Virus record (IMG/VR): IMGVR_UViG_3300037455_000100 | Span: 39,305-103,304 of that record | DNA: 64,000 bases | From: a virus | Lineage: Duplodnaviria; Caudoviricetes | Reading direction: 5' to 3' (one strand) | Shown here: in pieces, positions 6,199 through 64,000 of the stretch | Position numbering within the stretch: the first letter of the stretch is position 1 | Layout: each line of letters opens with the position of its first letter | The notes under the pieces: model-generated | Database searches by the model: none | The model's input: the letters and a program-made list of their open reading frames with translations, nothing else | What the model was told of the DNA's origin: nothing | Position numbers and translations under genes: made by a program

Positions 6199-6628
6199 CA
6201 ATCAAATAACATTTAGTGAAGTGCCTGGATTAGTTTCCAGATGCTTTGCTATATCTAATTGCGGAGGAAATTGCCCATCTTGTCACAGTCCTGAATTAAG
6301 AGAAAATATTGGTGAAGAATTTACTGATGAAATGCTTTATAACTTTATAGCGCATGATTATGATAATATAGATTGTTATGTATTTCTTGGTGATGGGCAA
6401 GACCCTAAAAGAATGATTGAACTTCTTAAAATATGTAAGCAACGTAAATTCAAAACGTGTCTTTATGTAGGTAAAGATGCAACAAACTGGGAATATTTAC
6501 GTTATCTAGATTATCTAAAACTTGGTAGTTATATTAATGCTTTAGGTGGTTTAGACAGTAAAATGACCAATCAAAGAATGTATAAAATAGAAAATATTAC
6601 AAATCAATTTCAAAATAAAAATATATGA
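6185..6628 (+). CDS. nrdG: Anaerobic RNR activase (radical SAM)
   Basis: CGGNCPSCHS (CxxxCxxC), DYLKLGSY, TNQRMY. The ATG at 6185 overlapping the nrdD end is preferred over the track start at 6083. Confidence 0.9.
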   Translation: MKLFSNQITFSEVPGLVSRCFAISNCGGNCPSCHSPELRENIGEEFTDEMLYNFIAHDYDNIDCYVFLGDGQDPKRMIELLKICKQRKFKTCLYVGKDATNWEYLRYLDYLKLGSYINALGGLDSKMTNQRMYKIENITNQFQNKNI

Positions 6629-38945: not shown

Positions 38946-41132
38946 TCATCTAGTGACATTCTCTGGAATTGTTTGAATAACATTGTCATTAAACGTTCCA
39001 TACCCTGCACCAATCCACCTAATAATATCATCTATACCTCCTTGTCTATTATCAGTTATACGTGTAGGAAATAATCCAACCGAAGTATTAAAATAATCTT
39101 TATAATTAGCATCTTCTGGATGATTTACAATTCTATTCAACGAAGCTCCCCCTTGTACTGCATCAACTGTTTGACCATATAATCTTAGAGCTGCTCCTAA
39201 TCTATTTGATATCGGGTCTTTAGCGTCACTTAGAAAATTTCCAATTATCGCAGCAGTATTACCACTATTATCTAAAAACTTATTAAATTTTGGATGTGCA
39301 TCTAAATAATTCTCAATAGATTGTTTGTCGTTACTCTCTAATGCTCTGTCTGTAATATATGATATTCCTGTAAGACCAGCGTTTGTATACATTTCATTCT
39401 TAAACATTTGTGGAATTTTAGACCACATTTTTGCTCCAAGTAATCCATATAATATATTTAGATTAATAGTGTTATTCTCCTCAGTAGCATCTTTATCAAA
39501 TTTCTCAACACTCTTCTTTAGTATTTGTTCTCTAGCTATTTCTGATTGACTTTTAGGAGATTTACCAACTTCTACTTCAGGTTCATAGTTATAAGGATTA
39601 TAAACAGTAGCAGTACTAGAAGTTTGTGGAGTAGTGCCTGGAATAGAACCTTTCTTTATCATTAAGTCTCTACCATCTTGCGCTTTATGGCTTAAAGGAT
39701 ATTCAGTTACATAATTACCATTAAAGTTATAATCTAACCAAGGTAACATTAGTTTAGTATCACCTGTATTAGATACACCTAATACTGGATAATTAACACC
39801 TTGCATAGTAATATTATTACTAGGTATAGTAGTTACTTGATGAGGATATTGCCATTGACCGTATGGAGTTATTTTACCAAGAGTACCGCCATTAGCTGCA
39901 TAGTTAGAAGTGTTATCTTGAGTATTATTTTGAGCTACTTCATTAAATAATCTTACCTTATCTTCGTCAGAAATATTGTTCAGATAATTACCTTTAAATA
40001 AATCTTTATGCTCCTTAACCCACTTTAATGTAATCTTTTGCTTAGGATTTAATTTATTTTTATATCTAAACTCTTGTAAAGCACCGTATAACTCTTTCGC
40101 ATTATATTTATTATCTCCAGTTTGGTAGCCCGTAACTTGTGGTATATCTCTATCTTTAAATATCACTTTACGTATATAATCTTCCTGTTGTGTTGGATGT
40201 GATGCGTGTGTAAACTCATGTATCTTTACAGCAGGGTCAACATTCTGTCCAGCAAATACTACAAAATGACTACCTTTGTTATTCCAAGGGTCTGCTTCAA
40301 CATAAGCACCTTTAGTATCATACATATAACTACTTCCTCTACCTATTTCAGTCTTAGGAGTATTAGCAGCATTCTCTATTTGAGCATAAACTAGTTTATT
40401 AACTCTGTTTTGCTCTGGAGTATAACCTTTAAAATACACAAATGGATTAGGTGTGTTATAATAGTCATCCCTATTCCATCCAGCTTCTCTTACATCACCT
40501 ATGTTATTCTTTGGATAATATTTACTATAGTTCCAAGTAGTAGCTCTAGCATTATCTGTTAAAATATCTCTCCTCGACATTAACCAATTCTTCATCCAAT
40601 TGATTTGCTCTTGGTCTTGAGGTCTGTTATTAGTAGGTAATCCGTTATCGGCAGTACCACCATCTTGATATTGGTTAGGAAATCTATTATATATTCTCTG
40701 TTCAGTATAATCACCTTCTCTATTATATATATTAGGATAAGTCTGTCTATTAATTACTGAAGGAGTGAATGTGTCGTTATTATTCCAACTTCCTCCCATA
40801 ACAGGACCACGTGAATATATGGATTCGTTACTGAAAGTAGGATGATTAGGTAATTTATAAGTATCAGGAAAGTGTTGTAAATTACTTAATTGTTTTACAG
40901 CATCATTATAATGATTCTTAAAGTAGGTCTCATAATCATATCCAGCTTTATTATTATCCATTTCAATATCTGGATATTTAGACTGCATTTGAGACTTCCA
41001 CTGTTCAAAAGTTAATTTACCACCTGACTGATTATAATGTGCTTTAATGGTATCTAAGTTATAGATACCATTTTGCACATATAATTTTATTAACTCAGCT
41101 TTTGAGCTTATATCTAAATCATTCCAATCCAT
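38946..41132 (-). CDS. Modular protein with HExxH zincin module and xxGG linkers
   Basis: IHEFTHA...ELY; HFPDTYKLPNHPTFS module; GQW...ITMQGV...EYP module. Confidence 0.65.
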   Translation of the reverse strand: MDWNDLDISSKAELIKLYVQNGIYNLDTIKAHYNQSGGKLTFEQWKSQMQSKYPDIEMDNNKAGYDYETYFKNHYNDAVKQLSNLQHFPDTYKLPNHPTFSNESIYSRGPVMGGSWNNNDTFTPSVINRQTYPNIYNREGDYTEQRIYNRFPNQYQDGGTADNGLPTNNRPQDQEQINWMKNWLMSRRDILTDNARATTWNYSKYYPKNNIGDVREAGWNRDDYYNTPNPFVYFKGYTPEQNRVNKLVYAQIENAANTPKTEIGRGSSYMYDTKGAYVEADPWNNKGSHFVVFAGQNVDPAVKIHEFTHASHPTQQEDYIRKVIFKDRDIPQVTGYQTGDNKYNAKELYGALQEFRYKNKLNPKQKITLKWVKEHKDLFKGNYLNNISDEDKVRLFNEVAQNNTQDNTSNYAANGGTLGKITPYGQWQYPHQVTTIPSNNITMQGVNYPVLGVSNTGDTKLMLPWLDYNFNGNYVTEYPLSHKAQDGRDLMIKKGSIPGTTPQTSSTATVYNPYNYEPEVEVGKSPKSQSEIAREQILKKSVEKFDKDATEENNTINLNILYGLLGAKMWSKIPQMFKNEMYTNAGLTGISYITDRALESNDKQSIENYLDAHPKFNKFLDNSGNTAAIIGNFLSDAKDPISNRLGAALRLYGQTVDAVQGGASLNRIVNHPEDANYKDYFNTSVGLFPTRITDNRQGGIDDIIRWIGAGYGTFNDNVIQTIPENVTR

Positions 41133-54614: not shown

Positions 54615-55763
54615 TTAAATGTCAAAACCGACTATCTTTTCAGTATCATTAATAGCACCAAGACCTGACTTAAAATTTAATGAACCGTCTGTTCTATAAG
54701 TTTGGTTAAGCAGTCTTTCAAGATTCTTATTACTTTCCCTAACCTGCTTCTTTACAGCACCTTTAAAAACACCATCAAGTTTAGTAAATCCCTCTGTTAA
54801 AACATACATTGTACCAAACATTTTAAGAGCTTCGTTAGGCTTCTCTCTCATATATTTCTGAATCTCTGTAAGCTGAGAACCATCTTTAAGTTTAATAGGT
54901 TTAGTAACAGTTTCATAAATTTTCTTTCTAATATTTTTACTTACATCAAGACCAGAATAGAAATCGTCGTCATTCATTATAGAAGTTTCAAGCTCTTCTA
55001 ACTGTTTCTTCTGCTTCTCTATAAATTTCTCTTGTTCTTTCTTACCTTCTTCAACTTCCTTATCGTATGAATTTTTATAGAATTTCTTTAAAGAAGCTAA
55101 AGCTTTCTTTGCATCATTCACATCATTACCACTCTCTATAGAACGTTCCACCATTTCTCTTGCATCATCTTCATCAAATCCTTTAGCGATATAGTTTTGA
55201 TAGATAAGATTCTTTCTATAATCTTCATATTGTTCACCTTCTTTCTCAATAGTTTCATCGGTTACTTGGTCAAGGCTATTAATAACTTGTTCATACTGTT
55301 GAATTTTATTAGGCTGTAATCCTGCATTTAAAGCATCATTAACTCTCTTCTGTACTTCTGTAAGTTGACTGTCTACCCTGCTATCAATATCCTCTCTAAA
55401 AGCTTCAATCAAATCTTCAGTAGTATTAACCTTTTTCAATCTTTCTTTATCAAGAGTTTGAAGAACCCCGTTGTCTGCAAGGGTAAAGGCAATGGAAGAA
55501 CTTATATTATTAGGAGAACCTTTATCACTTACATCATTGGGGTTCTCCCCACTTTGATTATCTTTTACTTCTTCATTTTCTTTAACCTCTTTAACCTCTT
55601 TAGTCTCAGTAGTCTCAGTATCTTCTGGAGGATTTTGATTTACTTCTTCATTTTCTTTAGTTTCAATTTTATTAATTTTGTCGTTTTCCTGACTATTCTC
55701 AGGAGTTAAGATGCCTAGTTTTGTTGCATCTTCAAAGTTAATGTTAAAAAATTCTTCTTCCAT
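54615..55763 (-). CDS. Putative scaffolding protein
   Basis: Acidic low-complexity N-terminus and coiled coils, directly upstream of MCP. Confidence 0.65.
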   Translation of the reverse strand: MEEEFFNINFEDATKLGILTPENSQENDKINKIETKENEEVNQNPPEDTETTETKEVKEVKENEEVKDNQSGENPNDVSDKGSPNNISSSIAFTLADNGVLQTLDKERLKKVNTTEDLIEAFREDIDSRVDSQLTEVQKRVNDALNAGLQPNKIQQYEQVINSLDQVTDETIEKEGEQYEDYRKNLIYQNYIAKGFDEDDAREMVERSIESGNDVNDAKKALASLKKFYKNSYDKEVEEGKKEQEKFIEKQKKQLEELETSIMNDDDFYSGLDVSKNIRKKIYETVTKPIKLKDGSQLTEIQKYMREKPNEALKMFGTMYVLTEGFTKLDGVFKGAVKKQVRESNKNLERLLNQTYRTDGSLNFKSGLGAINDTEKIVGFDI

Positions 55764-55857: not shown

Positions 55858-56220
55858 TTATTTATTATTTTCCTTGTCAGCAAGCCAAGAATGATAGTTG
55901 CCGTTCAAATATTCTTCCATATAACCCACCTTCATTTCAACCTTTTCTAGTCGTTCATCTATCCTCGTAAGCTTGTTAATAATTTGGTCTTGATTAGAGA
56001 AATTCTTCTCATTTGCTTGTTTTACAGTCTCTACCATAGCAAGCATTTCCTCCTTAACTTTAACAATCAAGTCAAGTCGTGCTTTTTGAGCTTCTACATC
56101 AGACACGGTAGCTTCACTGTCTTTAATAGTTTTATTTTGCTTTCTATAAGCTATAGCAGCTACAATACTACCTACAGTAGTACCTGAAAGCAATGTTAAA
56201 ATAATTGTAGTCCAATCCAT
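55858..56220 (-). CDS. Membrane-anchored coiled-coil protein (holin- or spanin-like)
   Basis: N-terminal TM followed by a coiled coil. Confidence 0.55.
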   Translation of the reverse strand: MDWTTIILTLLSGTTVGSIVAAIAYRKQNKTIKDSEATVSDVEAQKARLDLIVKVKEEMLAMVETVKQANEKNFSNQDQIINKLTRIDERLEKVEMKVGYMEEYLNGNYHSWLADKENNK

Positions 56221-56221
56221 T

Positions 56222-56638
56222 TTACTTAAATAGTTTAATAATTATTTTTATAAAGTTCTTAATAATTTCTATAAATTTAGTCTTAGTAATTAATAGGTAT
56301 AATAATACAATACCCAATGATAACCATACTGGCCACCATTGGGGTTTATTTACTATTTCAGTAACAACAGTTTCTGTGTTCACTATTTGTGGAATAGTGT
56401 CATGAGTAACCAGACTATCATGTACAGTTTTACCTACATAAATTGTCCTAATATGCTCTTTATAAACAGTATCACCGTTTATGAATATTATAGTAGAATC
56501 AGTAGTGTGTGTAGTGTCATGTACATACTCAGTCTTATACTCAGTACTGATTACTTCTATAGGAACTTCTACTATCTCTTTAACATGTTTACAGCTAACA
56601 AAAGCTATACAAACTAATAAAATTAAAATCTTTTTCAC
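56222..56638 (-). CDS. Lipoprotein with C-terminal TM (unimolecular spanin-like)
   Basis: MKK + hydrophobic stretch + FVSC lipobox, DT/DS beta repeats, C-terminal TM helix. Confidence 0.65.
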   Translation of the reverse strand: MKKILILLVCIAFVSCKHVKEIVEVPIEVISTEYKTEYVHDTTHTTDSTIIFINGDTVYKEHIRTIYVGKTVHDSLVTHDTIPQIVNTETVVTEIVNKPQWWPVWLSLGIVLLYLLITKTKFIEIIKNFIKIIIKLFK

Positions 56639-56661: not shown

Positions 56662-56671
56662 TGCAAAAATA
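56662..56671 (-). promoter_or_regulatory. Promoter of the lysis-like genes
   Basis: TATTTTTGCA on the minus strand. Confidence 0.6.
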
Positions 56672-56694
56672 CAACTTTTTTATAAAATAGATAA

Positions 56695-56723
56695 AGTTCC
56701 TAAAATATTTCATTTAGGAACTT
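56695..56723 (-). terminator. Terminator closing the CCC operon
   Basis: AAGTTCCTAAA...TTTAGGAACTT. Confidence 0.7.
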
Positions 56724-56744: not shown

Positions 56745-57047
56745 TTATAGATTTTTGTAAAATCTATAAATATTCTGTGCGATATAACCTATAAGATATG
56801 CAGCATCTTCTGAATCTTCTTTAACATTATAGTATTTACATATATGTGATTGTAAATGCTTTAACTCATGTATTAAAGTATTAAAGAATTGCTCAGACGA
56901 AGAAGATGTTGAAATAGCTACAATACTTCTCCTTTTACTATAATCAGTATAAGTAAATCCAGTATCGAGCTCTCCCAGATAAACATTATATAATATGATT
57001 ACTTTCCAATAACCATTTATATCAATATTTTGCCTATAACATTTCAT
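56745..57047 (-). CDS. Small HExxH zincin-like protein
   Basis: TLIHELKH...SEDAAYLIG. Confidence 0.7.
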   Translation of the reverse strand: MKCYRQNIDINGYWKVIILYNVYLGELDTGFTYTDYSKRRSIVAISTSSSSEQFFNTLIHELKHLQSHICKYYNVKEDSEDAAYLIGYIAQNIYRFYKNL

Positions 57048-57438
57048 ACCAATCTATAGGGATTCCTTGTAGACACATGTCAGCATAGAATCTGTTGAAT
57101 ACCTGACCATCTACTGCATCAGGGTCATCAATCAAATCCTTTACATACATGGCTTGTCTAGCTTCATCTATAACAGACCTTCCTAAGAAATCTGCTTCAC
57201 ACATAGACCATACATAACATCCATCATAAAGTGCATCATTGTTAAGCTTTATACCATACTGTTGCATCTTTAACTTGAATGTTTCTTTAGTGACAGGATT
57301 TACAGGTTGATTGTTTGCTTTATACATATTAGATACAGCAAACTCATACATCTTTTTACTGAAATGTCTGCCATTGTGTGACAGATACATTTCCATATCT
57401 TCTGGTATAATATATTCTAAAGAATCTCTTTTTCTCAT
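57034..57438 (-). CDS. Hypothetical protein
   Basis: YL..NG.HF, AD, DDPD, F.RFYADM...G.PIDW. Confidence 0.7.
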   Translation of the reverse strand: MRKRDSLEYIIPEDMEMYLSHNGRHFSKKMYEFAVSNMYKANNQPVNPVTKETFKLKMQQYGIKLNNDALYDGCYVWSMCEADFLGRSVIDEARQAMYVKDLIDDPDAVDGQVFNRFYADMCLQGIPIDWYEML

Positions 57439-57480
57439 AACTAAATAAAATTAAAGGGGATATTGCTATCCCCTTGATTA

Positions 57481-57666
57481 TTACATTCTACGAAACTTCT
57501 TTGAATAGCGATTATCTTCTTCATCATCTTCATAATGACGACTACGCTCTTCATACTCAGAATCTTCTATACACTCAACAATCATAGAAGCATACTCTTC
57601 CATTTTACGAGCTTTCTCAAGAAGATGTTCTTTATCTCTTTTAGTTCTGAATGAAACCATTACCAT
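57481..57666 (-). CDS. Small charged protein
   Basis: ATG at 57666 preferred; followed by hairpin 57454-57475. Confidence 0.6.
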   Translation of the reverse strand: MVMVSFRTKRDKEHLLEKARKMEEYASMIVECIEDSEYEERSRHYEDDEEDNRYSKKFRRM

Positions 57667-57679
57667 AATATTCCTTTCT

Positions 57680-58150
57680 TTAATTAGAGTTTCCAAGTTT
57701 CTCAAGTAATATCTTAATACTATCTTGAAGTGTATTTACCTGACTTTGTAAACTTTCTATAGCTTTATTATCCGTTACATTAGGACTTAACTCGCTTAGA
57801 GCTTCCTCATAATCAGCTACTAATTTCTCATGTTTCTTCATACTATTAAGAATAGTTTTACTATTCTGCATCATAGAAGTTATATAAGAACTCAGTGCAT
57901 CTTTATTTTCAGCTATAATAAAAGCCGAATCACCAAAGTTAGCTATTGATGTATTAGGAACTCCTTTAAATTCTCTTCTCTCACCAGCTATATTAGCTAC
58001 AATATCTACAATCATTTCCATATTAGGATTGAATGTATTATATTTAGGTCTTGGAAGAGATACACTTTCTATTGGACCACTTAATACTTTAGGATTGTTA
58101 TTCAAATCCAATACGTATAAAATACTATTTTGAGTTAAATTTGAAAACAT
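57680..58150 (-). CDS. Hypothetical protein with C-terminal coiled coil
   Basis: 156 aa ORF. Confidence 0.7.
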   Translation of the reverse strand: MFSNLTQNSILYVLDLNNNPKVLSGPIESVSLPRPKYNTFNPNMEMIVDIVANIAGERREFKGVPNTSIANFGDSAFIIAENKDALSSYITSMMQNSKTILNSMKKHEKLVADYEEALSELSPNVTDNKAIESLQSQVNTLQDSIKILLEKLGNSN

Positions 58151-58180
58151 AGTTATTAAATTTTAATTGTTAGATTTTAA

Positions 58181-58519
58181 TTAAGCAACAGTCCTAGACA
58201 TTAATGTAAGTAAACCTCTAGTTCTATCATTAAACACTGTTATAACACCAACATTAAGTAATTCAGCAGCAGTGACAGGAGTACCGTTAGGTAAAGTCAA
58301 AGCTCTGGTAGTACCATTCATTGTAAGAGTTATAGGCAATGTAGTTGTAGCATCAGCAGGTATTACGTCATTAATAAGAACTGTCAAATAACCTACTGGT
58401 TGGATTCTACGAAATCCTAAAGCTATATCAATAGTTTCAGTACCTATAGTAGTATTAGTTGAACTAATATAAGGAATACCACCAGCGTTAGTTGCTATAA
58501 TTTGATTACAACAATTCAT
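58181..58519 (-). CDS. Small beta-rich, Thr-rich protein
   Basis: 112 aa, starts MNCC. Confidence 0.7.
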   Translation of the reverse strand: MNCCNQIIATNAGGIPYISSTNTTIGTETIDIALGFRRIQPVGYLTVLINDVIPADATTTLPITLTMNGTTRALTLPNGTPVTAAELLNVGVITVFNDRTRGLLTLMSRTVA

Positions 58520-58543
58520 ACGTTTAACCTCCTATTTCCTCAT

Positions 58544-59494
58544 TTAAAAAATAATACTACCACCGAAACCATTCATATAACCATAACCACCAGCATAAGG
58601 AGTATTATTAACAGCCGTGAGATTAGGCCATGTAATAGGAACAGTGTTGGGCTGTTTTGCAGCAATTGCATCAATCTTATCGTCAATAGCAGCCATAGCC
58701 TTATTGAAAGCTAAAGTCTGGTTATCATTACTAATCTGATTACGCAGTTGAGTAATAATATCACCCTGAGTATTAATCTTATTCTGAAGTTCACGCTCTT
58801 TAAGGTCACAGAATTCCTTAGTAATAAGAGTATTCTGACCAGCAATAGCATTAAGAATACTGTTAGTATTAGCATCAGCCTGTCTTCCTAATGTATTAGT
58901 TTGCTGGCAGACACTTAACTGGTCAGCAGCTTCATTGTTAGCAAGCTGAAGTCTTACATTAGCATCGTTAGCAGCAAGCTGAGAAGTAATAGTATTGGTT
59001 TGCTGACAAGTAGCAAGACGATTCTCACAGCAGCAGCTAGCAAGCTGTTGAGCTAATGAAGCATTACCACTCTGGACAGAGTTGATAACTTGTAAACCAC
59101 TCATACCAACCTGAGAACCAATCTCACCAAGTTTATTATTAACAACATTGATAGCATCCCTAACACTCTCAACACTAGCGTTACTAATCTGAGCAAGCTG
59201 ACCAAGTGCATCAGCACGACCATTAATAGCCTGAAGAATAAGGTCACGACCAGCATCGTTGTTAAGTTGGTTAGCTAAGAACCCAACACCACCGTTATTG
59301 TTGTTACCAAAACCAAAACCATTACCGTTAAACATGTTGAAGAAAGGAAGGATAAAAGGATACATAAACATCATCCACAAAGGATTGTTGAATCCATTAC
59401 CAAATCCTCCATTATTTCCAAGAAGCAAAGCAGTAGTAGGGTCAATACTGTTGTTTCTATTCTCTGGAAACATAAAGACTTTACTGTCATCCAT
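58544..59494 (-). CDS. Gly-rich hydrophobic N-terminus plus coiled-coil protein with CCC motif
   Basis: NPLWMMFMYPFILPFF flanked by GNGFG repeats; QLASCCCENRL; long Gln/Asn/Ala heptads. Confidence 0.75.
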   Translation of the reverse strand: MDDSKVFMFPENRNNSIDPTTALLLGNNGGFGNGFNNPLWMMFMYPFILPFFNMFNGNGFGFGNNNNGGVGFLANQLNNDAGRDLILQAINGRADALGQLAQISNASVESVRDAINVVNNKLGEIGSQVGMSGLQVINSVQSGNASLAQQLASCCCENRLATCQQTNTITSQLAANDANVRLQLANNEAADQLSVCQQTNTLGRQADANTNSILNAIAGQNTLITKEFCDLKERELQNKINTQGDIITQLRNQISNDNQTLAFNKAMAAIDDKIDAIAAKQPNTVPITWPNLTAVNNTPYAGGYGYMNGFGGSIIF

Positions 59495-59531
59495 AAATTT
59501 AAAAATTTTAATTGTTAATGATTAATTTTTT

Positions 59532-59557
59532 GTAAGCTTACGGATGCAAAAGTACTA
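59532..59557 (-). promoter_or_regulatory. Promoter plus palindromic site upstream of the CCC gene
   Basis: TAGTACTTTTGCA (59545-59557) immediately followed by perfect palindrome GTAAGCTTAC (59532-59541). Confidence 0.65.
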
Positions 59558-59599
59558 TATATAATATCTAAATACTAATATTCACTATATAAAAAATAA

Positions 59600-59625
59600 A
59601 CCTCTGATTATCATTAACCAGAGGT
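59600..59625 (-). terminator. Terminator after the HTH gene
   Basis: ACCTCTG...CAGAGGT with a minus-strand T-run. Confidence 0.65.
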
Positions 59626-59647
59626 GAGGTATATTTAGTGAAAAGAA

Positions 59648-59953
59648 CTATTTATATTTACCTATTTTATACTTTTTAGCACATTCTATTACTTCATCTA
59701 AATAAAATCTTTTCTCTTTAAAACCTATCTTCTTAATACCTTTTGGTAATAATCCATCTTTCACTAAAGTGTCAAATCTACTTGTAGATAAACCTATTTC
59801 AATAGCAGCTCTTTCTTTACTTACTGGTTCATGTAATATAGCTGTAAATATTTTTAAAGCTTGTTCTTCTTCTATATCTGAAGTATTAGCTTTAAATTTA
59901 TTAGCTGTTTCTATTAACAAATCTGCTAAGTTATTTCTTAAAACGTCGTTCAT
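59648..59953 (-). CDS. AlpA/excisionase-like HTH protein
   Basis: SKERAAIEIGLSTSRFDTLVKDGLLPKG...RFY. Confidence 0.75.
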   Translation of the reverse strand: MNDVLRNNLADLLIETANKFKANTSDIEEEQALKIFTAILHEPVSKERAAIEIGLSTSRFDTLVKDGLLPKGIKKIGFKEKRFYLDEVIECAKKYKIGKYK

Positions 59954-60326
59954 GTTCTTTAAATTTAAAGTATACTATCAACAATGTTGTAATTCCAGCT
60001 GTAATGAAATCTATTAATACAGTAGATTCATAATACTTTGTAAAGTCTAAATAATAATCTAATATTGTAATTAACCAATTTACAAATATATAATATAATG
60101 GTAATCTATGATATATACAAAACTTAAACACAAAAGAACTTATACACAAGAATAACCAAGGTAATAAAGATATTCCTGCTATATAAGATATTAGTGGAAT
60201 ATCAATATAAAAATAAGATAGAGTTGTATTTAATAAATAAAATATAGCTAATAAATAAGGTATAATTTTTATAATATACAACTCTATCTTATATAAAGCT
60301 TTATTTAGACTTTGAGAGTTTTCCAC
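59931..60326 (-). CDS. Four-TM membrane protein
   Basis: Four hydrophobic segments, FKFCIYHR loop. Confidence 0.75.
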   Translation of the reverse strand: MENSQSLNKALYKIELYIIKIIPYLLAIFYLLNTTLSYFYIDIPLISYIAGISLLPWLFLCISSFVFKFCIYHRLPLYYIFVNWLITILDYYLDFTKYYESTVLIDFITAGITTLLIVYFKFKEHERRFKK

Positions 60327-60438
60327 CGCAACTATAACGTCTACTATTATTATTTCTAGTAACTCCAGCTTTAGGTGTCATAGGACTTCTTTTACTTGTG
60401 GATTCACTCTTTTTACTTGAATTTGTTCTTTTTGCCAT
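60301..60438 (-). CDS. Small basic peptide (45 aa) ending RRYSCGGKLSKSK
   Basis: Not in the track; ATG after an AT-rich leader; overlaps the next gene. Confidence 0.6.
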   Translation of the reverse strand: MAKRTNSSKKSESTSKRSPMTPKAGVTRNNNSRRYSCGGKLSKSK

Positions 60439-60472: not shown

Positions 60473-63316
60473 TTAATTATTACTAAGTGCAGTAATCATT
60501 GCATCAATTTCAGCTTTGGTATACATACCACTTGGATTACCATTATCATTATACACATTTTTTGTGTCGGTGTTTGATGGTATGAAACCTTCTTCTTCTG
60601 GATTATTTAAATTAAACATATCATTTACTGCCAATATAGCAGCCCTTTGAGCTATTAAAGCATTGGCAGCTGTTATTTGTATAGGAATACCTCTACCATC
60701 GTAATAATCAGCGTCTCCTGGTTGTGGTATTGGTATATTTGTGTTTGTGTAAGTATTACCAAGTACTGTAACATTATATCTAGGAGCAAATAATGCTTCA
60801 AAATACGCACAAGCAGCCACATAATCACCAATATCATCCCTTAGATGAGTTCCGTCGGCAGAAAAATCGTTTTTCTTTGTATTATCAACTGGATCTGTAG
60901 TATTAAGCGTAGTCATACGTAAGTTTTGTACTGCTGTACCATAAGGAATGATAAAATCAATACCATAATCTGATTTTAATTTTTTGACGGCTTTAACTAT
61001 ATTTTGCCAACGCTCTGTAGAATCAGTACCTGTCTGATAACTTGAAGACTTCCAACTTGGATAACTGTGTACAATATAGAAGCCAATTGAAGCTTGTGGG
61101 CAATAAGTTTTTAATATTCGTAGATATTCTGTTAAGCCACCAGCTTCTCCGTCTCCAGTCCAATGTTCATAATCAGTAGAATGTTTCGACTCTTGATGAA
61201 TAATGATTATATCCCAATCATTTTTTAGTAAACTTACAAACCAGCTATTATCAAGTCCACTATAACTGCCAGTGCTAATACCACTAATAGTATCTCCAGC
61301 CTTTTTTTGAACACCGTATGAATAATCATCATTCTCATTATACATATTTACCCACTTTCTAAATGATGAGCCTGCTCTCAAACATTTGTATAAAGAGAAT
61401 CCTGTGGTAATATGTGCAGCTTCTAAAAGTTCGTCAAGATAATCTGTAGTATCACTTGTATAACTATTGCCTAGGTCAAGAATTCTCAAGTTTTGTTTCC
61501 TTAAATTTACTGGAACATTAAACATCTTACTTACAGATATAGGGATATTATCCAGTTCTTCTTGAATATCTTCTATATCACCATTAATAGTAGATATGGA
61601 TGTTTCTAAATTTCCAACACGTTCAACTATACCAAGTTCCCGATTTTTCTTAAATAATGTTGGATTTTTACTTTTATAAGAAGTCATATAAAAGTATACT
61701 TCTCCTTCTTGTGCAGTTACTTCATAAGGAGTGGTATGTATTTCATAATCTTCTGCATGGCGAACAACTACTCCACTACTATTTGCAAAAGACCATAAAC
61801 AGCTATTTACACCAGAACCTCCTTTTCCTGTAAGAATGAATGTATCTCCTAATGCACATGTTATACTATCGCTTGAATTACATACAAAACTTGTATGTAA
61901 ACTCATTGTTGGTGGAGTATATCTTATATTCCAATATCCTTCAACAAGTTCGACAACACTTGTATCTCCTTCCTCCCCATATAATTCCTGGTAAGCAGCC
62001 TCTCCATGAGCTGTAGTTCCTGCAACAGCGTCTATTTCTTCATGAATCTCGGAAAGTTCATTCAAAATACCTTCATAAGAACTTTGTTTTTGCAACTTAT
62101 ACGAATTACTTGTTTTTGCAGTAAAATAAAAATAGGTCGCACCCTCTGGAACATTAATAGTATAATTTTCTTGGGACTCATTAGCTTCTGCCTCCAAAAG
62201 ATTATTACCATTTGCATCAGAAAAAACATAAAGCCTGCTTGAACCCCCTCCACCAGTACCTGTTAGAATGAATGTATCTCCTTCCTTACAAACAGTGACG
62301 TCGTTAGAAATATAACCTGTCAGGTCTCCTCTTGTGTGTTCTGTACGTCTCCAAAAAGTTCCAATAGTGAGAGATTCGTCTATAGTTTTACCTGTATAAC
62401 CATTAATAGTATTATACGAATAATTAGCTTCTTCTCCTACTTCTTGCTCAATCATTAATTCTTTAATAACAGGATGTTCGTTCAGACTCTTCCAAGTTAT
62501 ATCACGATTAAAAGTTAATGATGTTGTAATAGTTCTATTATAACTGTTGTCTTCATGTAATATATAATAACAATAAGAACTTTCTAAAAGAATACCACAA
62601 CCTGCTTTAGCATCATTTATATTATTATAAGCCCTTCTAAATAGTTGTTTCCAAGAGTTATTTATATATAACGACAATAAATTTACATAATCGTCTCCAC
62701 TTTGAGCACAACAATATATCATTACTTTAGTTACACTTGCAATATCTATATAATCTTCACTCTCAGGGTCATCAACGCCTTCTTTTAGTACTATATCTAC
62801 AATAAAATCATTAATGTTATCTACATTACAAAGCTTTATGTCAGCATATACTCCCCCACTTTCTACAAGTTTACTACTCCCAGAAGTAGGTACACTGTCT
62901 ATACCTACATTCTTTTTATCAAGAAATACATAAGTACTACCATTCCAAGCATACTCAGAATAAACATTTGTAGTATATTGTGTACCATCCCAATTACCTA
63001 CTCTATACACAGTATCATCACTACCCGTATTAGGTAAAACATCAGTTACAGTTGTAGTTTGGTCTGTAGCAGCTACAGTCACATAACTTTGTTCTGGTGT
63101 TGTAATAAGATGATTAAGTTCAGATTTGCTGTAAGTCTCTTCTTTATTGTAAACATAACCTTTTGTATATCTATCAGAAAGTGCTACATCTACATCTTGA
63201 TTAACCTCACTTTGTATCTTACCTTTAGTATCATCAAATACTTCGTTAGCACCTGTAACTATATTACCTGTAGCAACACTATGGAGTCTACCTCCTATAT
63301 TAATATTTTCAGCCAT
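60473..63316 (-). CDS. Fibre/receptor-binding protein with SGNH hydrolase (DUF4886-like) domain
   Basis: Fibre-type YTK/YNK/YSK repeats and DSVPTSGSSKLVESGGV; ILDLGNSYT and DGTH catalytic motifs. Confidence 0.75.
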   Translation of the reverse strand: MAENINIGGRLHSVATGNIVTGANEVFDDTKGKIQSEVNQDVDVALSDRYTKGYVYNKEETYSKSELNHLITTPEQSYVTVAATDQTTTVTDVLPNTGSDDTVYRVGNWDGTQYTTNVYSEYAWNGSTYVFLDKKNVGIDSVPTSGSSKLVESGGVYADIKLCNVDNINDFIVDIVLKEGVDDPESEDYIDIASVTKVMIYCCAQSGDDYVNLLSLYINNSWKQLFRRAYNNINDAKAGCGILLESSYCYYILHEDNSYNRTITTSLTFNRDITWKSLNEHPVIKELMIEQEVGEEANYSYNTINGYTGKTIDESLTIGTFWRRTEHTRGDLTGYISNDVTVCKEGDTFILTGTGGGGSSRLYVFSDANGNNLLEAEANESQENYTINVPEGATYFYFTAKTSNSYKLQKQSSYEGILNELSEIHEEIDAVAGTTAHGEAAYQELYGEEGDTSVVELVEGYWNIRYTPPTMSLHTSFVCNSSDSITCALGDTFILTGKGGSGVNSCLWSFANSSGVVVRHAEDYEIHTTPYEVTAQEGEVYFYMTSYKSKNPTLFKKNRELGIVERVGNLETSISTINGDIEDIQEELDNIPISVSKMFNVPVNLRKQNLRILDLGNSYTSDTTDYLDELLEAAHITTGFSLYKCLRAGSSFRKWVNMYNENDDYSYGVQKKAGDTISGISTGSYSGLDNSWFVSLLKNDWDIIIIHQESKHSTDYEHWTGDGEAGGLTEYLRILKTYCPQASIGFYIVHSYPSWKSSSYQTGTDSTERWQNIVKAVKKLKSDYGIDFIIPYGTAVQNLRMTTLNTTDPVDNTKKNDFSADGTHLRDDIGDYVAACAYFEALFAPRYNVTVLGNTYTNTNIPIPQPGDADYYDGRGIPIQITAANALIAQRAAILAVNDMFNLNNPEEEGFIPSNTDTKNVYNDNGNPSGMYTKAEIDAMITALSNN
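61680..62340 (-). repeat. Tandem duplicated beta domain in the fibre gene
   Basis: CKEGDTFILTGTGGGG...YFYFT versus CALGDTFILTGKGGSG...YFYMT; AGAATGAATGTATCTCCT occurs at ~61833 and ~62265. Confidence 0.75.
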
Positions 63317-63318
63317 AT

Positions 63319-63873
63319 TTAAGATATTATAATTGTTAATGTTTCAGCATCGTATGTATTAGAGCTTTTATAATATTTATATTCAGTACTGTCTACAACA
63401 ACATTCATAGGATGCTCTAAAGGAAATGGAAATCCACCTAAAAATGCTTCATTAATATTCATTGAACGTGGTATTAAAAAGTATACACAATCCATAGCAT
63501 GTCTTACAGTAATAGTATAACTTCCTACAGGTGATTGTAATATAGTATTATACTTTTTCTTATTTTCATAGAAATCTTCATAACTATTACCACTTCCATA
63601 ATAAATAGTCATAACAGGAGTATTACTAGTTCCACTTTTTTCACAATTATTATAAGGCGTTAAACAACTACCTTCAACACAAGTATATAATATATTAAGT
63701 AAAGAATATTGTTCTTCTGTAATTGAACAATCATATTTACCTTCCAGTACATCATTAATCCATGATGCTACTATAAGATTGTCTATAGATTTTTTACTTA
63801 CAGTACCAGTTTTTATTACAGTATTATAATACTTTAAAAAACCCTTCTCTAAAGCTTGACTTATCTGTGACAT
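63319..63873 (-). CDS. Putative tail-hub-associated structural protein
   Basis: Helical N-half ending CVEGSCL.PY, beta C-half; inferred from synteny. Confidence 0.45.
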   Translation of the reverse strand: MSQISQALEKGFLKYYNTVIKTGTVSKKSIDNLIVASWINDVLEGKYDCSITEEQYSLLNILYTCVEGSCLTPYNNCEKSGTSNTPVMTIYYGSGNSYEDFYENKKKYNTILQSPVGSYTITVRHAMDCVYFLIPRSMNINEAFLGGFPFPLEHPMNVVVDSTEYKYYKSSNTYDAETLTIIIS

Positions 63874-64000
63874 CCGCAATCATTTTTAAATGTTGTACCG
63901 TTATAAGTTAGATTAAAGAATTTATTCCAGTATAGATTAGCTAATGAAAAATTACCAGATTCTACAGCAAGTTCAAGACCTTTAATCTGCACTATATAAT
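63861..64000 (-). CDS. 3' end of a gene starting beyond the window (ends ...NDCGCHR)
   Basis: Open frame from the window edge; CGCH terminus resembles crAss tail-hub proteins. Confidence 0.55.
   Translation of the reverse strand, partial: YIVQIKGLELAVESGNFSLANLYWNKFFNLTYNGTTFKNDCGCHR

Follow-up and report, generated by a model that had tools for sequence, protein, structure and literature searches.

The virus record IMGVR_UViG_3300037455_000100 (Duplodnaviria; Caudoviricetes) contains, within the 64,000-nucleotide stretch analyzed here (positions 39,305 to 103,304 of the record, hereafter the window), a block of nine small genes, g1 to g9, centered on a coiled-coil protein with a Cys-Cys-Cys cluster (CCC, g4). 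The block comprises a six-gene operon, g4 to g9, which recurs with conserved gene order in many other phages, and a regulatory unit, g1 to g3, encoding a basic peptide, a putative protein with four transmembrane (TM) segments (4-TM protein), and a winged helix-turn-helix (HTH) protein. The cassette is best explained, tentatively and with a probability of about 0.4, as a late, self-regulated accessory fiber. An earlier reading of this DNA, made from its letters alone (the sequence-only reading), had described a self-contained nine-gene module and proposed a regulated, membrane-associated system, an interpretation that is supported in part. The nine open reading frames (ORFs) it listed are all present on the minus strand (Table 1) and their order is conserved, but they form two linked units and are not an obligatory set of nine.

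The order CCC-g5-g6-(g7)-g8-g9, on a single strand, is retained in nearly all sufficiently long loci of a CCC-anchored scan of IMG/VR (80 loci, followed by tblastn and ORF maps). A second scan anchored on g8, a member of the Pfam family DUF7841, returned more than 570 places. In a sample of 74 of these loci with room upstream, CCC was found in 71, g5 in 69, g6 in 70, and g9 in 55, the order being unchanged. The genes thus co-occur as a module with either anchor, as the sequence-only reading had supposed. Because the identical gene order recurs in 80 CCC-anchored and 71 of 74 DUF7841-anchored loci, the cassette lies far beyond chance; the loci share ancestry, and their counts are not numbers of independent events. 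The CCC family comprises at least 6,894 clusters at 90% identity, none of which carries a name or a Pfam domain, and g5 relatives fall into 245 representative clusters at 50% identity.

Linkage of the regulatory unit to the operon is looser. The 4-TM and HTH genes lie directly upstream of the operon in about 35 loci and directly downstream of g9 in a second group, in which the linkage is kept and the side is switched; g2 relatives adjoin the module in 46 of 83 loci. The six-gene core occurs without the g1-g3 trio in Bacteroides phage C3_41T2LP, a cultured siphovirus of 74 kb with a tape-measure gene, and in prophage-like chromosomal carriers. Since the core also travels without the trio, the block is described here as a six-gene core plus a detachable regulatory unit. 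In C3_41T2LP the six genes close an operon of recombination genes and run towards a giant tail gene. The chromosomal carriers are Bacteroidales contigs of 43-55% G+C, with an integrase, a helicase, a Holliday-junction resolvase, and a tail-fiber gene as neighbors, and additional carriers, in BFVD, are labelled Myoviridae, Siphoviridae, and Podoviridae and likewise lack the trio. The crAss001 genome lacks the cassette, and DUF7841 is rare in Bacteroidales chromosomes (2 of 401 sampled). Flanking genes are variable: of 83 CCC-anchored loci, 4 have the fiber gene of the window, 15 its capsid gene, and 3 its lysis-like gene. Tail-fiber or large tail genes nonetheless adjoin the cassette in the window, in C3_41T2LP, in the chromosomal locus L096, and in many IMG/VR loci. 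DUF7841 also occurs without recognizable CCC, g5, or g9 in two cultured sewage siphoviruses, Parabacteroides phage PD691P3 (L217) and Bacteroides phage BF503P2 (L218), where it bears an N-terminal extension of 50-75 residues. It lies between a giant protein/tail fiber and the endolysin in the former and after a tail-fiber gene in the latter.

The six-gene part constitutes a separate transcription unit, as judged from its promoter, its closing terminator, and the ends of short contigs. Both terminators and the promoter before the CCC gene that had been proposed from the sequence were located, the promoter being a Bacteroidetes-type -7 box, which is present in 62 of 82 distinct regions upstream of CCC. 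A sigma-70 scan was uninformative (32 sites against 32.9 expected), a chance-level result that is expected for a Bacteroidetes host. A set of 13 IMG/VR contigs, each measuring no more than 2.4-3.1 kb, spans just the six-gene operon (L013, L018, L019, L027, L030, L034, L035, L037, L039, L040, L046, L050, and L062). Twelve of the 13 have their 5' end 28-76 nt before the CCC ATG and extend to g8 or g9. In the lineage that holds most of them, the long DNA loci share an element '...TTTTAGTTGCAACT' continued directly by 'AGATAC...', and the six mappable short contigs, which belong to a recoded lineage (see below), begin 0-9 nt past a palindrome at the promoter; starts at AGATAC, ATAC, or GATAT lie 0-4 nt past it. 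Random fragmentation would not give such 5' ends, and the short contigs therefore look like assembled mRNAs that were filed as virus genomes, a conclusion drawn from where they start. Their 5' ends put the start site where the -7 box predicts it. The sample identifiers of these contigs were not found in any paper searched. Within the block the gene pairs g1/g2, g2/g3, and g8/g9 overlap, which fits translational coupling, and the remaining spacers measure 13-42 nt.

The operon contains a further hairpin, between g7 and g8, that was absent from the sequence-only reading. In the window this structure has a minimum free energy (MFE) of -13.4 kcal/mol (z = -5.3), and hairpins with an MFE of -6 or lower, GC-rich and followed by a T tract, occur in 22 of 26 distinct g7-g8 spacers, their sequences differing. 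Because the short contigs run through it, the hairpin behaves as a partial terminator, and it probably sets two expression tiers; CCC, g5, g6, and g7 would therefore exceed g8 and g9 in amount.

Evidence on timing comes from a sub-lineage of carriers, including contigs of 176-183 kb, that reads TAG as glutamine (loci L019, L020, L022, L026, L027, L030, L033-L035, L038-L040, L046, L047, L050, L055, L057, L062, L080, and L095). TAG is the sole frame interruption in these carriers, it falls on conserved Gln columns, and its translation as Gln gives full-length genes. Its density within the recoded cassette is 21 per 1000 in CCC and 24 per 1000 in g6, with up to 13 in a single CCC gene, and the large genes neighboring recoded cassettes are likewise TAG-rich. 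TAG recoding codons mark late genes in recoded phages. The TAG richness of the cassette, together with its own promoter and terminator, suggests that the operon is expressed late. An earlier timing of g2 and g3 in the recoded phages was considered and rejected, as the TAG count of g3 equals that of CCC and gives no temporal separation. Of all 43 genes in the window, CCC most strongly prefers C-ending codons and groups with capsid proteins, a weak signal.

At the expected start site of the CCC operon lies a perfect palindrome, GTAAGCTTAC, of which the window holds only this one exact copy. Many related loci have a perfect palindrome of 10-14 bp just past the -7 box, with a lineage-specific sequence; variants at CCC promoters include GTAAGCTTAC, TTGTTACGTAACAA, CTGTTAGCTAACAG, AGTTGCAACT, and TTCTTCGAAGAA, among others. 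Of 65 distinct upstream regions, 25 contain such a palindrome, the background rate being 0.79 per kb. In both samples combined they accompany a g3-type HTH gene: 33 of 46 loci with the gene have one as opposed to 6 of 36 without it (Fisher p = 6.5e-7, a value that overstates independence because the loci are related). The proposal that the module is regulated thus gains an operator-like element at the start site and a statistical link to the HTH gene. As the palindrome is spacer-less, it is more in keeping with a dimeric DNA-binding protein than with an RNA hairpin, and g3 may bind it and control the CCC operon. Loci without g3 have other inverted repeats over or past the -7 box, and some of them have a different small HTH-like gene upstream. 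In L064, L065, L073, and L076, which lack the g3-type HTH, this different gene, ending '...SRATIERAIRRLEGEC', lies directly before the operon; with its different inverted repeat at the promoter, the arrangement looks like a swapped regulator-operator pair.

The g3 protein probably consists of an HTH_17-type winged helix preceded by a helical N-terminal extension of 40 residues. Pfam HTH_17 matches 27 of 31 aligned g3 relatives (best E 4.7e-7); the window copy gives no hit at E of 0.05 or less but shares the motif in the alignment. The sequence-only reading had called this protein AlpA-like, for which HTH_17, of the excisionase type, is the better name. A homologue in the phage cr116_1 carries the deposited annotation 'terminase small subunit/excisionase'. 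In the window, g3 is not adjacent to a terminase gene, and across loci it tracks the CCC operon from upstream or downstream. A terminator-like hairpin equivalent to that of the window is found directly 3' of g3 in most related loci. For g2 there is no match in Pfam, PHROG, or NCBIfam. Among 13 aligned relatives of the g1 peptide, Y35, G38, and G39 are invariant. Its C-terminus (RRYxCGGK) belongs to a set of related aromatic, Gly, and basic C-termini that also includes those of g7 (RYGYRR) and of CCC (TPYxGGYGY; 58544-58650). [YFH]xxGG motifs have likewise been noted in the cargo proteins, and such motifs may conceivably serve the zincin for recognition or cleavage.

CCC has a head rich in Gly, Asn, and aromatic residues with a short hydrophobic stretch, then short helices, a long helix, and a Gly/Tyr-rich tail. 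According to an AlphaFold2 (AF2) model and the alignment, the long helix spans at least 110 residues and starts at the invariant Cys154-156; between it and the tail lies a conserved segment, KQPNTVPVxWPNL. The AF2 monomer is all-helical and of low confidence (predicted local distance difference test score, pLDDT, 54; predicted template modelling score 0.21), as is usual for oligomeric rods. Hydrophobicity along the long helix has a period of 3.67 (power 49) rather than 3.5 (power 1.2). Relatives differ by insertions or deletions of exactly 11 or 22 residues, which fit an extended rod that changes length in register. Cys163, Cys196, and Cys229 are spaced 33 residues apart at the identical hendecad position, and the sequence shows self-similarity at lag 33. 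CCC can accordingly be described as a predicted extended coiled coil of hendecad type in which core cysteines form layers. The hydrophobic stretch of the head consists, in most relatives, of about 12 aromatic residues flanked by Gly and Asn, without flanking positive charges; the AF2 model of the window protein has a hydrophobic helix spanning residues 38-56. Weak coiled-coil matches to influenza HA2 (profile match E 0.05) and reovirus sigma-1 account for the deposited labels 'spike glycoprotein' and 'outer capsid protein/viral fiber'.

The g5 protein has a flexible 15-residue N-terminus (MNCC...) followed by a beta-sandwich (AF2 pLDDT 88). Its best match among solved structures, and the top match in two fold searches, is the tail fiber gp47 of phage Pa193 (residues 246-337; Z 5.3, root-mean-square deviation 3.2 over 87 residues), the next rows having Z of 3.2 or less. 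The matched region is a beta-sandwich bead of this trimeric fiber, the third by position (bead III). Among the predicted viral structures of BFVD, beyond its own family, g5 matches long tail-fiber, collagen-like, T7-fiber-like, and receptor-binding proteins (E 1e-4 to 1e-2). The protein therefore bears a modest resemblance, at the level of predicted fold only, to a tail-fiber bead or knob, in contrast to the sequence-only reading, which found no match to a tail role in any of the nine genes. A capsid cement function was rejected: a KHP-type cement protein, gp16, at E 0.73 is the only sequence hint and is absent from the fold searches. Neither g5 nor ten distant relatives belong to a Pfam family. 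The BclA C-terminal domain, BxpB/ExsF, and Ena appear in none of the g5 fold lists from the Protein Data Bank (PDB), an absence that does not rule them out.

The way in which g5 varies also recalls a fiber tip. In the 35 loci with the five larger genes complete, CCC is the most conserved protein (mean identity 65%, and 74% from the CCC motif onward), and g5 identity is bimodal, 59% of pairs lying below 40%. Spearman correlations of g5 identity with that of the other genes range from 0 to 0.19, whereas g6, g8, and g9 correlate with one another at 0.47 to 0.62. Since its identity is uncorrelated with that of every other gene, g5 is exchanged on its own, a pattern that resembles the behavior of receptor-binding tips, in which a swappable specificity tip would sit on a conserved shaft.

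The remaining products of the operon are smaller or less readily classified. The g6 protein combines a conserved beta-rich N-terminal domain (MFSNLS...) with a C-terminal coiled coil, and its PDB matches are to coiled coils only (fibrinogen gamma, E 7.7e-4; P22 tail needle, E 4e-3). The name 'PRTRC system protein E' was discarded for g6, being an automatic cluster name of look-alikes in a protein atlas with no match in NCBIfam. The first 35 residues of the g7 peptide are conserved and are followed by an acidic linker of D, E, and Y and then by a basic tail, R-Y-G-Y-R-R; as relatives of the peptide start at an internal Met, the shorter of two possible forms (Table 1) is the more likely. The assignment of g8 to DUF7841 (PF25223) is secure by score (E 5.5e-26, 91.5 bits, cut-off 25.2), and the protein has 18 invariant residues, many of them acidic, including H25, D72, D83, D105, D107, N115, R116, and W130. 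That the operon ends with an HExxH mini-zincin, as proposed from the sequence, is borne out by the invariance in 41 sequences of H60, E61, H64, and E80, corresponding to HExxH and a third metal ligand. Matches of g9 to M78, SprT, M76, and MPTase-PolyVal are all sub-threshold (best E 0.0011, to M78, for 3 members of the 41 relatives), and profile search finds no PDB relative. Apparent natural g8-g9 fusions at ten loci were dismissed, as a lone TAG stands at the exact junction and the two genes are joined only by translating TAG as Gln. A split ArdC-like protein, with a DNA-binding N-domain and a zincin divided between g8 and g9, was set aside; it has no Pfam support, and no longer fused forms were found, the latter being weak evidence. 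In cr116_1, which appears to have two zincin-like genes and no DUF7841, the gene at 6267-6614 ('VOG3488', between the HTH gene and CCC) has a weak match to the g9 zincin profile (E 1.4e-4).

In the accessory-fiber model, a portable six-gene late operon would build a fiber-like protein assembly. CCC would form a long oligomeric hendecad rod or shaft that begins with the Cys-Cys-Cys cluster, g5 an exchangeable bead or knob, and g6 a second coiled-coil subunit or an adaptor, with the acidic g7 made at the same high level as these three. The products of g8 and g9, encoded behind the leaky internal terminator and made in lower amounts, could serve as assembly or maturation factors. The regulatory unit (basic peptide, 4-TM protein, and HTH_17 protein) would supply a DNA-binding protein that recognizes the lineage-specific palindrome and times or gates expression of the operon. 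We infer that the products form a single assembly, that it is a virion fiber, that the HTH protein binds the palindrome, and that g6 to g9 have these roles. Most crassviruses lack the head fibers gp21 and gp29, a role that uncharacterized proteins may fill (PMC10172136). The model fits this gap, as gp21 and gp29 homologues were not detected in the present genome, weak evidence at this divergence.

Several observations weigh against a virion fiber. The Z score of the g5 match is too low for a safe assignment of fold, and the Pa193 model that it matches is in turn an AlphaFold fit. No virion docking domain was found in the cassette proteins, nor any similarity to the capsid-binding N-termini of crAss001 gp21 and gp29, and neither a natural CCC-g5 fusion nor any longer protein containing g5 was found, although that is weak evidence. 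By eye, the g3 recognition helix shows no co-variation with the palindrome half-site. The head of CCC is hydrophobic and aromatic, and an 11-residue periodicity is also typical of amphipathic helices that bind lipid surfaces. In C3_41T2LP the cassette stands at the end of the recombination operon and not among structural genes, and its presence in genomes labelled as podo-, sipho-, and myoviruses is awkward for a particle-specific part. A repressor-like regulator of their own, a zincin, or a DUF7841 partner is seldom found with fiber genes. The modest fold match, the missing docking domain, the three tail types, the dedicated regulator, and the zincin are among the reasons that hold the probability of an accessory fiber to the value given above.

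A late cell-envelope complex is the main rival, though a doubtful one. CCC would be anchored by its hydrophobic head and extended by a coiled-coil stalk, acting in lysis (its timing, or disruption of the outer membrane) or in superinfection exclusion, with the 4-TM protein and the HTH protein as sensor and switch. Lysis genes often adjoin the cassette. In the window, one protein with a lipoprotein signal and a C-terminal TM segment and another with an N-terminal TM segment and a coiled coil are encoded downstream, and the homologue of the first adjoins the cr116_1 holin; in cr116_1 the holin and a carboxypeptidase precede the cassette, in cr272_1 an endolysin follows it, and in PD691P3 DUF7841 alone occupies the place between tail fiber and endolysin. 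Such adjacency is weak evidence, because tail-fiber and lysis genes neighbor each other in most tailed phages. The flanks of the cassette vary, as the scarcity of the lysis-like gene among the 83 loci illustrates, none of the nine proteins matches a holin, endolysin, or spanin family in Pfam, PHROGs, or NCBIfam, and the likely endolysin, of M15 type, is encoded on the left arm about 12 kb away across the genome ends. The AF2 hydrophobic helix of CCC and its weak HA2 matches would suit an anchor, whereas the aromatic composition of this stretch in most relatives and its lack of a positive-inside signal would not. The 4-TM protein is translationally coupled to the regulator, yet signal peptides and TM segments are absent from g5, g6, g7, g8, and g9 (calls made by eye from the sequences). 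With only the 4-TM protein and the CCC stretch to support it, the membrane association proposed by the sequence-only reading is weakened. It is also unlikely, to a similar degree, that the six proteins form a self-contained, self-regulated machine of a new kind, separate from the virion and common to Bacteroidales phages with every type of tail, thousands of them, in gut and rumen. Its core, a hendecad coiled coil stapled by metal or disulfides and bearing an exchangeable beta-sandwich head, would assemble in or on the cell late in infection. A lineage-specific repressor coupled to a membrane protein would switch it on, and it would decide how or when the cell opens or whether a second phage gets in.

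An intracellular scaffold outside the virion, resembling intermediate filaments or forming condensates and organizing replication or assembly, is improbable. The head-rod-tail layout of CCC with its G/N/F/Y-rich ends, the acidic linker and RYGYRR tail of g7, the lack of export signals, the high expression, and the independence of the cassette from virion type would all be in keeping with it. Its sole basis, however, is composition; no NTPase or nucleic-acid-binding domain is present, and the tail-fiber-like fold and independent exchange of g5 fit a surface-exposed specificity element better. Least probable, and only a slim prospect, is a counter-defense or host-takeover module in which the zincin, partnered by DUF7841, would cut a host factor and the remaining products would serve as decoys or inhibitors. 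In C3_41T2LP the g9 homologue has been annotated as a metallopeptidase of PolyVal type, a single relative weakly matches Pfam MPTase-PolyVal (E 0.029), and the cassette is portable and occupies variable accessory slots. Counter-defense genes are usually early, though, whereas this operon appears to be expressed late and at capsid-like levels, and four of the six proteins look structural. The zincin family matches are all sub-threshold, and g9 is the least constant member of the cassette.

Table 1. Features of the nine-gene block and of the neighboring genes. Positions are those of the window unless marked otherwise.
Feature	Position	Strand	Basis and remarks
186 aa protein	63319-63879	-	Crassvirus tail-hub-B N-terminal domain; precedes the 947 aa gene
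947 aa 'fiber' protein	60473-63316	-	DUF4886 domain, residues 611-861, E 4.5e-24
g1, 45 aa basic peptide	60301-60438	-	ORF; C-terminal motif RRYxCGGK; overlaps g2 by 26 nt
g2, 131 aa putative 4-TM protein	59931-60326	-	ORF; four hydrophobic segments; GTG start; overlaps g3 by 23 nt
g3, 101 aa HTH_17-type winged HTH	59648-59953	-	ORF and alignment
Terminator-like hairpin with T run	59600-59625	-	Directly 3' of the HTH gene; closes the g1-g3 unit
Bacteroidetes-type -7 box TACTTTTG	59547-59554	-	Consensus TAnnTTTG; precedes the CCC gene
Perfect palindrome GTAAGCTTAC, operator-like	59532-59541	-	At the expected start site, five bases past the -7 box
g4, CCC protein, 316 aa	58544-59494	-	ORF; phrog_16490, function unknown
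g5, 112 aa beta protein	58181-58519	-	ORF and AF2 model
g6, 156 aa	57680-58150	-	ORF; phrog_28898
g7, ~61 aa charged/acidic peptide	57481-57666	-	Listed ORF 57481-57705; start of relatives is Met14 of the listed ORF
Internal GC-rich hairpin with T tract	57454-57475	-	g7-g8 spacer, just past the g7 stop
g8, 134 aa DUF7841 protein	57034-57438	-	Pfam PF25223
g9, 100 aa HExxH mini-zincin	56745-57047	-	ORF; phrog_1365; overlaps g8 by 14 nt
Terminator-like hairpin with T run	56694-56723	-	Directly 3' of g9; closes the six-gene operon
New -7 box TATTTTTG	56664-56671	-	Follows the operon-closing terminator
138 aa protein	56222-56638	-	Lipoprotein-type signal (...FVSC) and C-terminal TM; unimolecular-spanin layout; no family match
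120 aa protein	55858-56220	-	N-terminal TM segment and coiled coil; no family match
382 aa protein	54615-55763	-	crAss001 gp31 homologue, 37% identity, E 6e-56; just before the capsid gene
134 aa M15-type candidate endolysin	L219:1363-1767 (~8.6-9.0 kb of the whole genome, outside the window)	-	SGYR...N..GG...S.H..G.A.D pattern

The source phage is crAss-like, from rumen or gut. Its record is complete, 103,304 bp long and bounded by direct terminal repeats; the window, with about 30% G+C, makes up the right-hand 64 kb. A DNA-level search of a phage collection gave no match. Among the genes of the window is one for a crAss-type major capsid protein (phrog_11589, E 1.7e-69), which at about 35% identity is closest to those of cultured and uncultured Crassvirales, and all genes discussed here lie on the minus strand within a long late transcription arm. 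The flanking 'fiber' of the sequence-only reading is a DUF4886 protein encoded after one with a crassvirus tail-hub-B domain, and the two probably make up a hub-attached tail fiber with an enzymatic head. A flanking protein of 221 aa is tail ring protein 3/4. Of the flanking 'lysis genes', a lysis-like architecture and no more can be upheld, one of them, the 138 aa protein, having the cr116_1 homologue next to an annotated holin. The M15-type protein on the left arm, though matching Pfam Peptidase_M15_4 with an E of only 0.006, is the likely endolysin of this phage, judged from its sequence pattern; it is about 12 kb from both the cassette and its lysis-like neighbors. The gp31 homologue may be a scaffolding protein, as the crAss001 structure paper (PMC10172136) does not name gp31 as a protein of the virion.

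The window proteins belong to phrog_16490, phrog_31654, phrog_28898, phrog_38431/Pfam DUF7841 (PF25223), and phrog_1365, families that carry no functional annotation, and the literature searched contains no mention of them and no description of the cassette. The elements new to this analysis are the DUF7841-anchored co-occurrence, the start-site evidence from contig ends, the palindrome-HTH statistics, the conserved internal hairpin, the hendecad and Cys-33 geometry of CCC, the independent exchange of g5, and the BFVD and Pa193 fold matches. In the human gut, crAss-like phages are more abundant than any other viruses, and a function is known for only a minority of their genes. The cassette is among the most widespread of the remainder, crossing virion types and recurring in thousands of Bacteroidales phages. 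If it encodes an exchangeable fiber, it is a candidate determinant of host range or mucus binding that moves between unrelated phages and bears on phage-host dynamics in the gut and rumen; if its products are not on the virion, they would represent a new late-infection machine. Both possibilities are directly testable, given a cultured carrier (C3_41T2LP), DUF7841-only phages of B. fragilis and Parabacteroides, a mapped promoter, start site, and putative operator, and two expression tiers.

Among known systems the cassette may be compared with the accessory fibers crAss001 gp21/gp29, phi29 gp8.5, T4 fibritin, and Pa193 gp47, the last having a separate tip. It shares with them a small beta-sandwich domain of the bead or knob kind, a predicted long coiled-coil rod, and an exchangeable tip, and its late position among tail, lysis, and capsid genes recalls that of crAss001 gp29, which lies among lysis genes. 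It differs from them in that rod and knob are separate polypeptides with four more conserved partners, including a zincin and DUF7841, in having its own regulator and putative operator, and in its Cys cluster and hendecad periodicity; its proteins have no sequence similarity to any known fiber. Like lysis cassettes, to which it is often adjacent, it is late-expressed and associated with a membrane protein, g2, and the cysteine-bearing coiled coil of CCC recalls the disulfide-linked i-spanin Rz. Unlike lysis cassettes, it has no lysis-family match, most of its products have no export signals, and the likely endolysin is encoded elsewhere in the genome. The g9 protein resembles the minimal zincins (M78 ImmA/IrrE, SprT-like, M76, and PolyVal MPTase) in its HExxH motif, its downstream invariant Glu, and its domain of about 100 residues, but its matches fall below curated thresholds and it has no partner repressor of the ImmR type. 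Xis and AlpA proteins are usually direct-repeat binders or activators, whereas g3 appears to be paired with a palindrome and is coupled to the 4-TM protein and the basic peptide. In having a small winged-HTH gene beside the operon and a lineage-variable palindrome over the start site, the regulatory unit is most like the repressor-operator pairs of moron-type operons.

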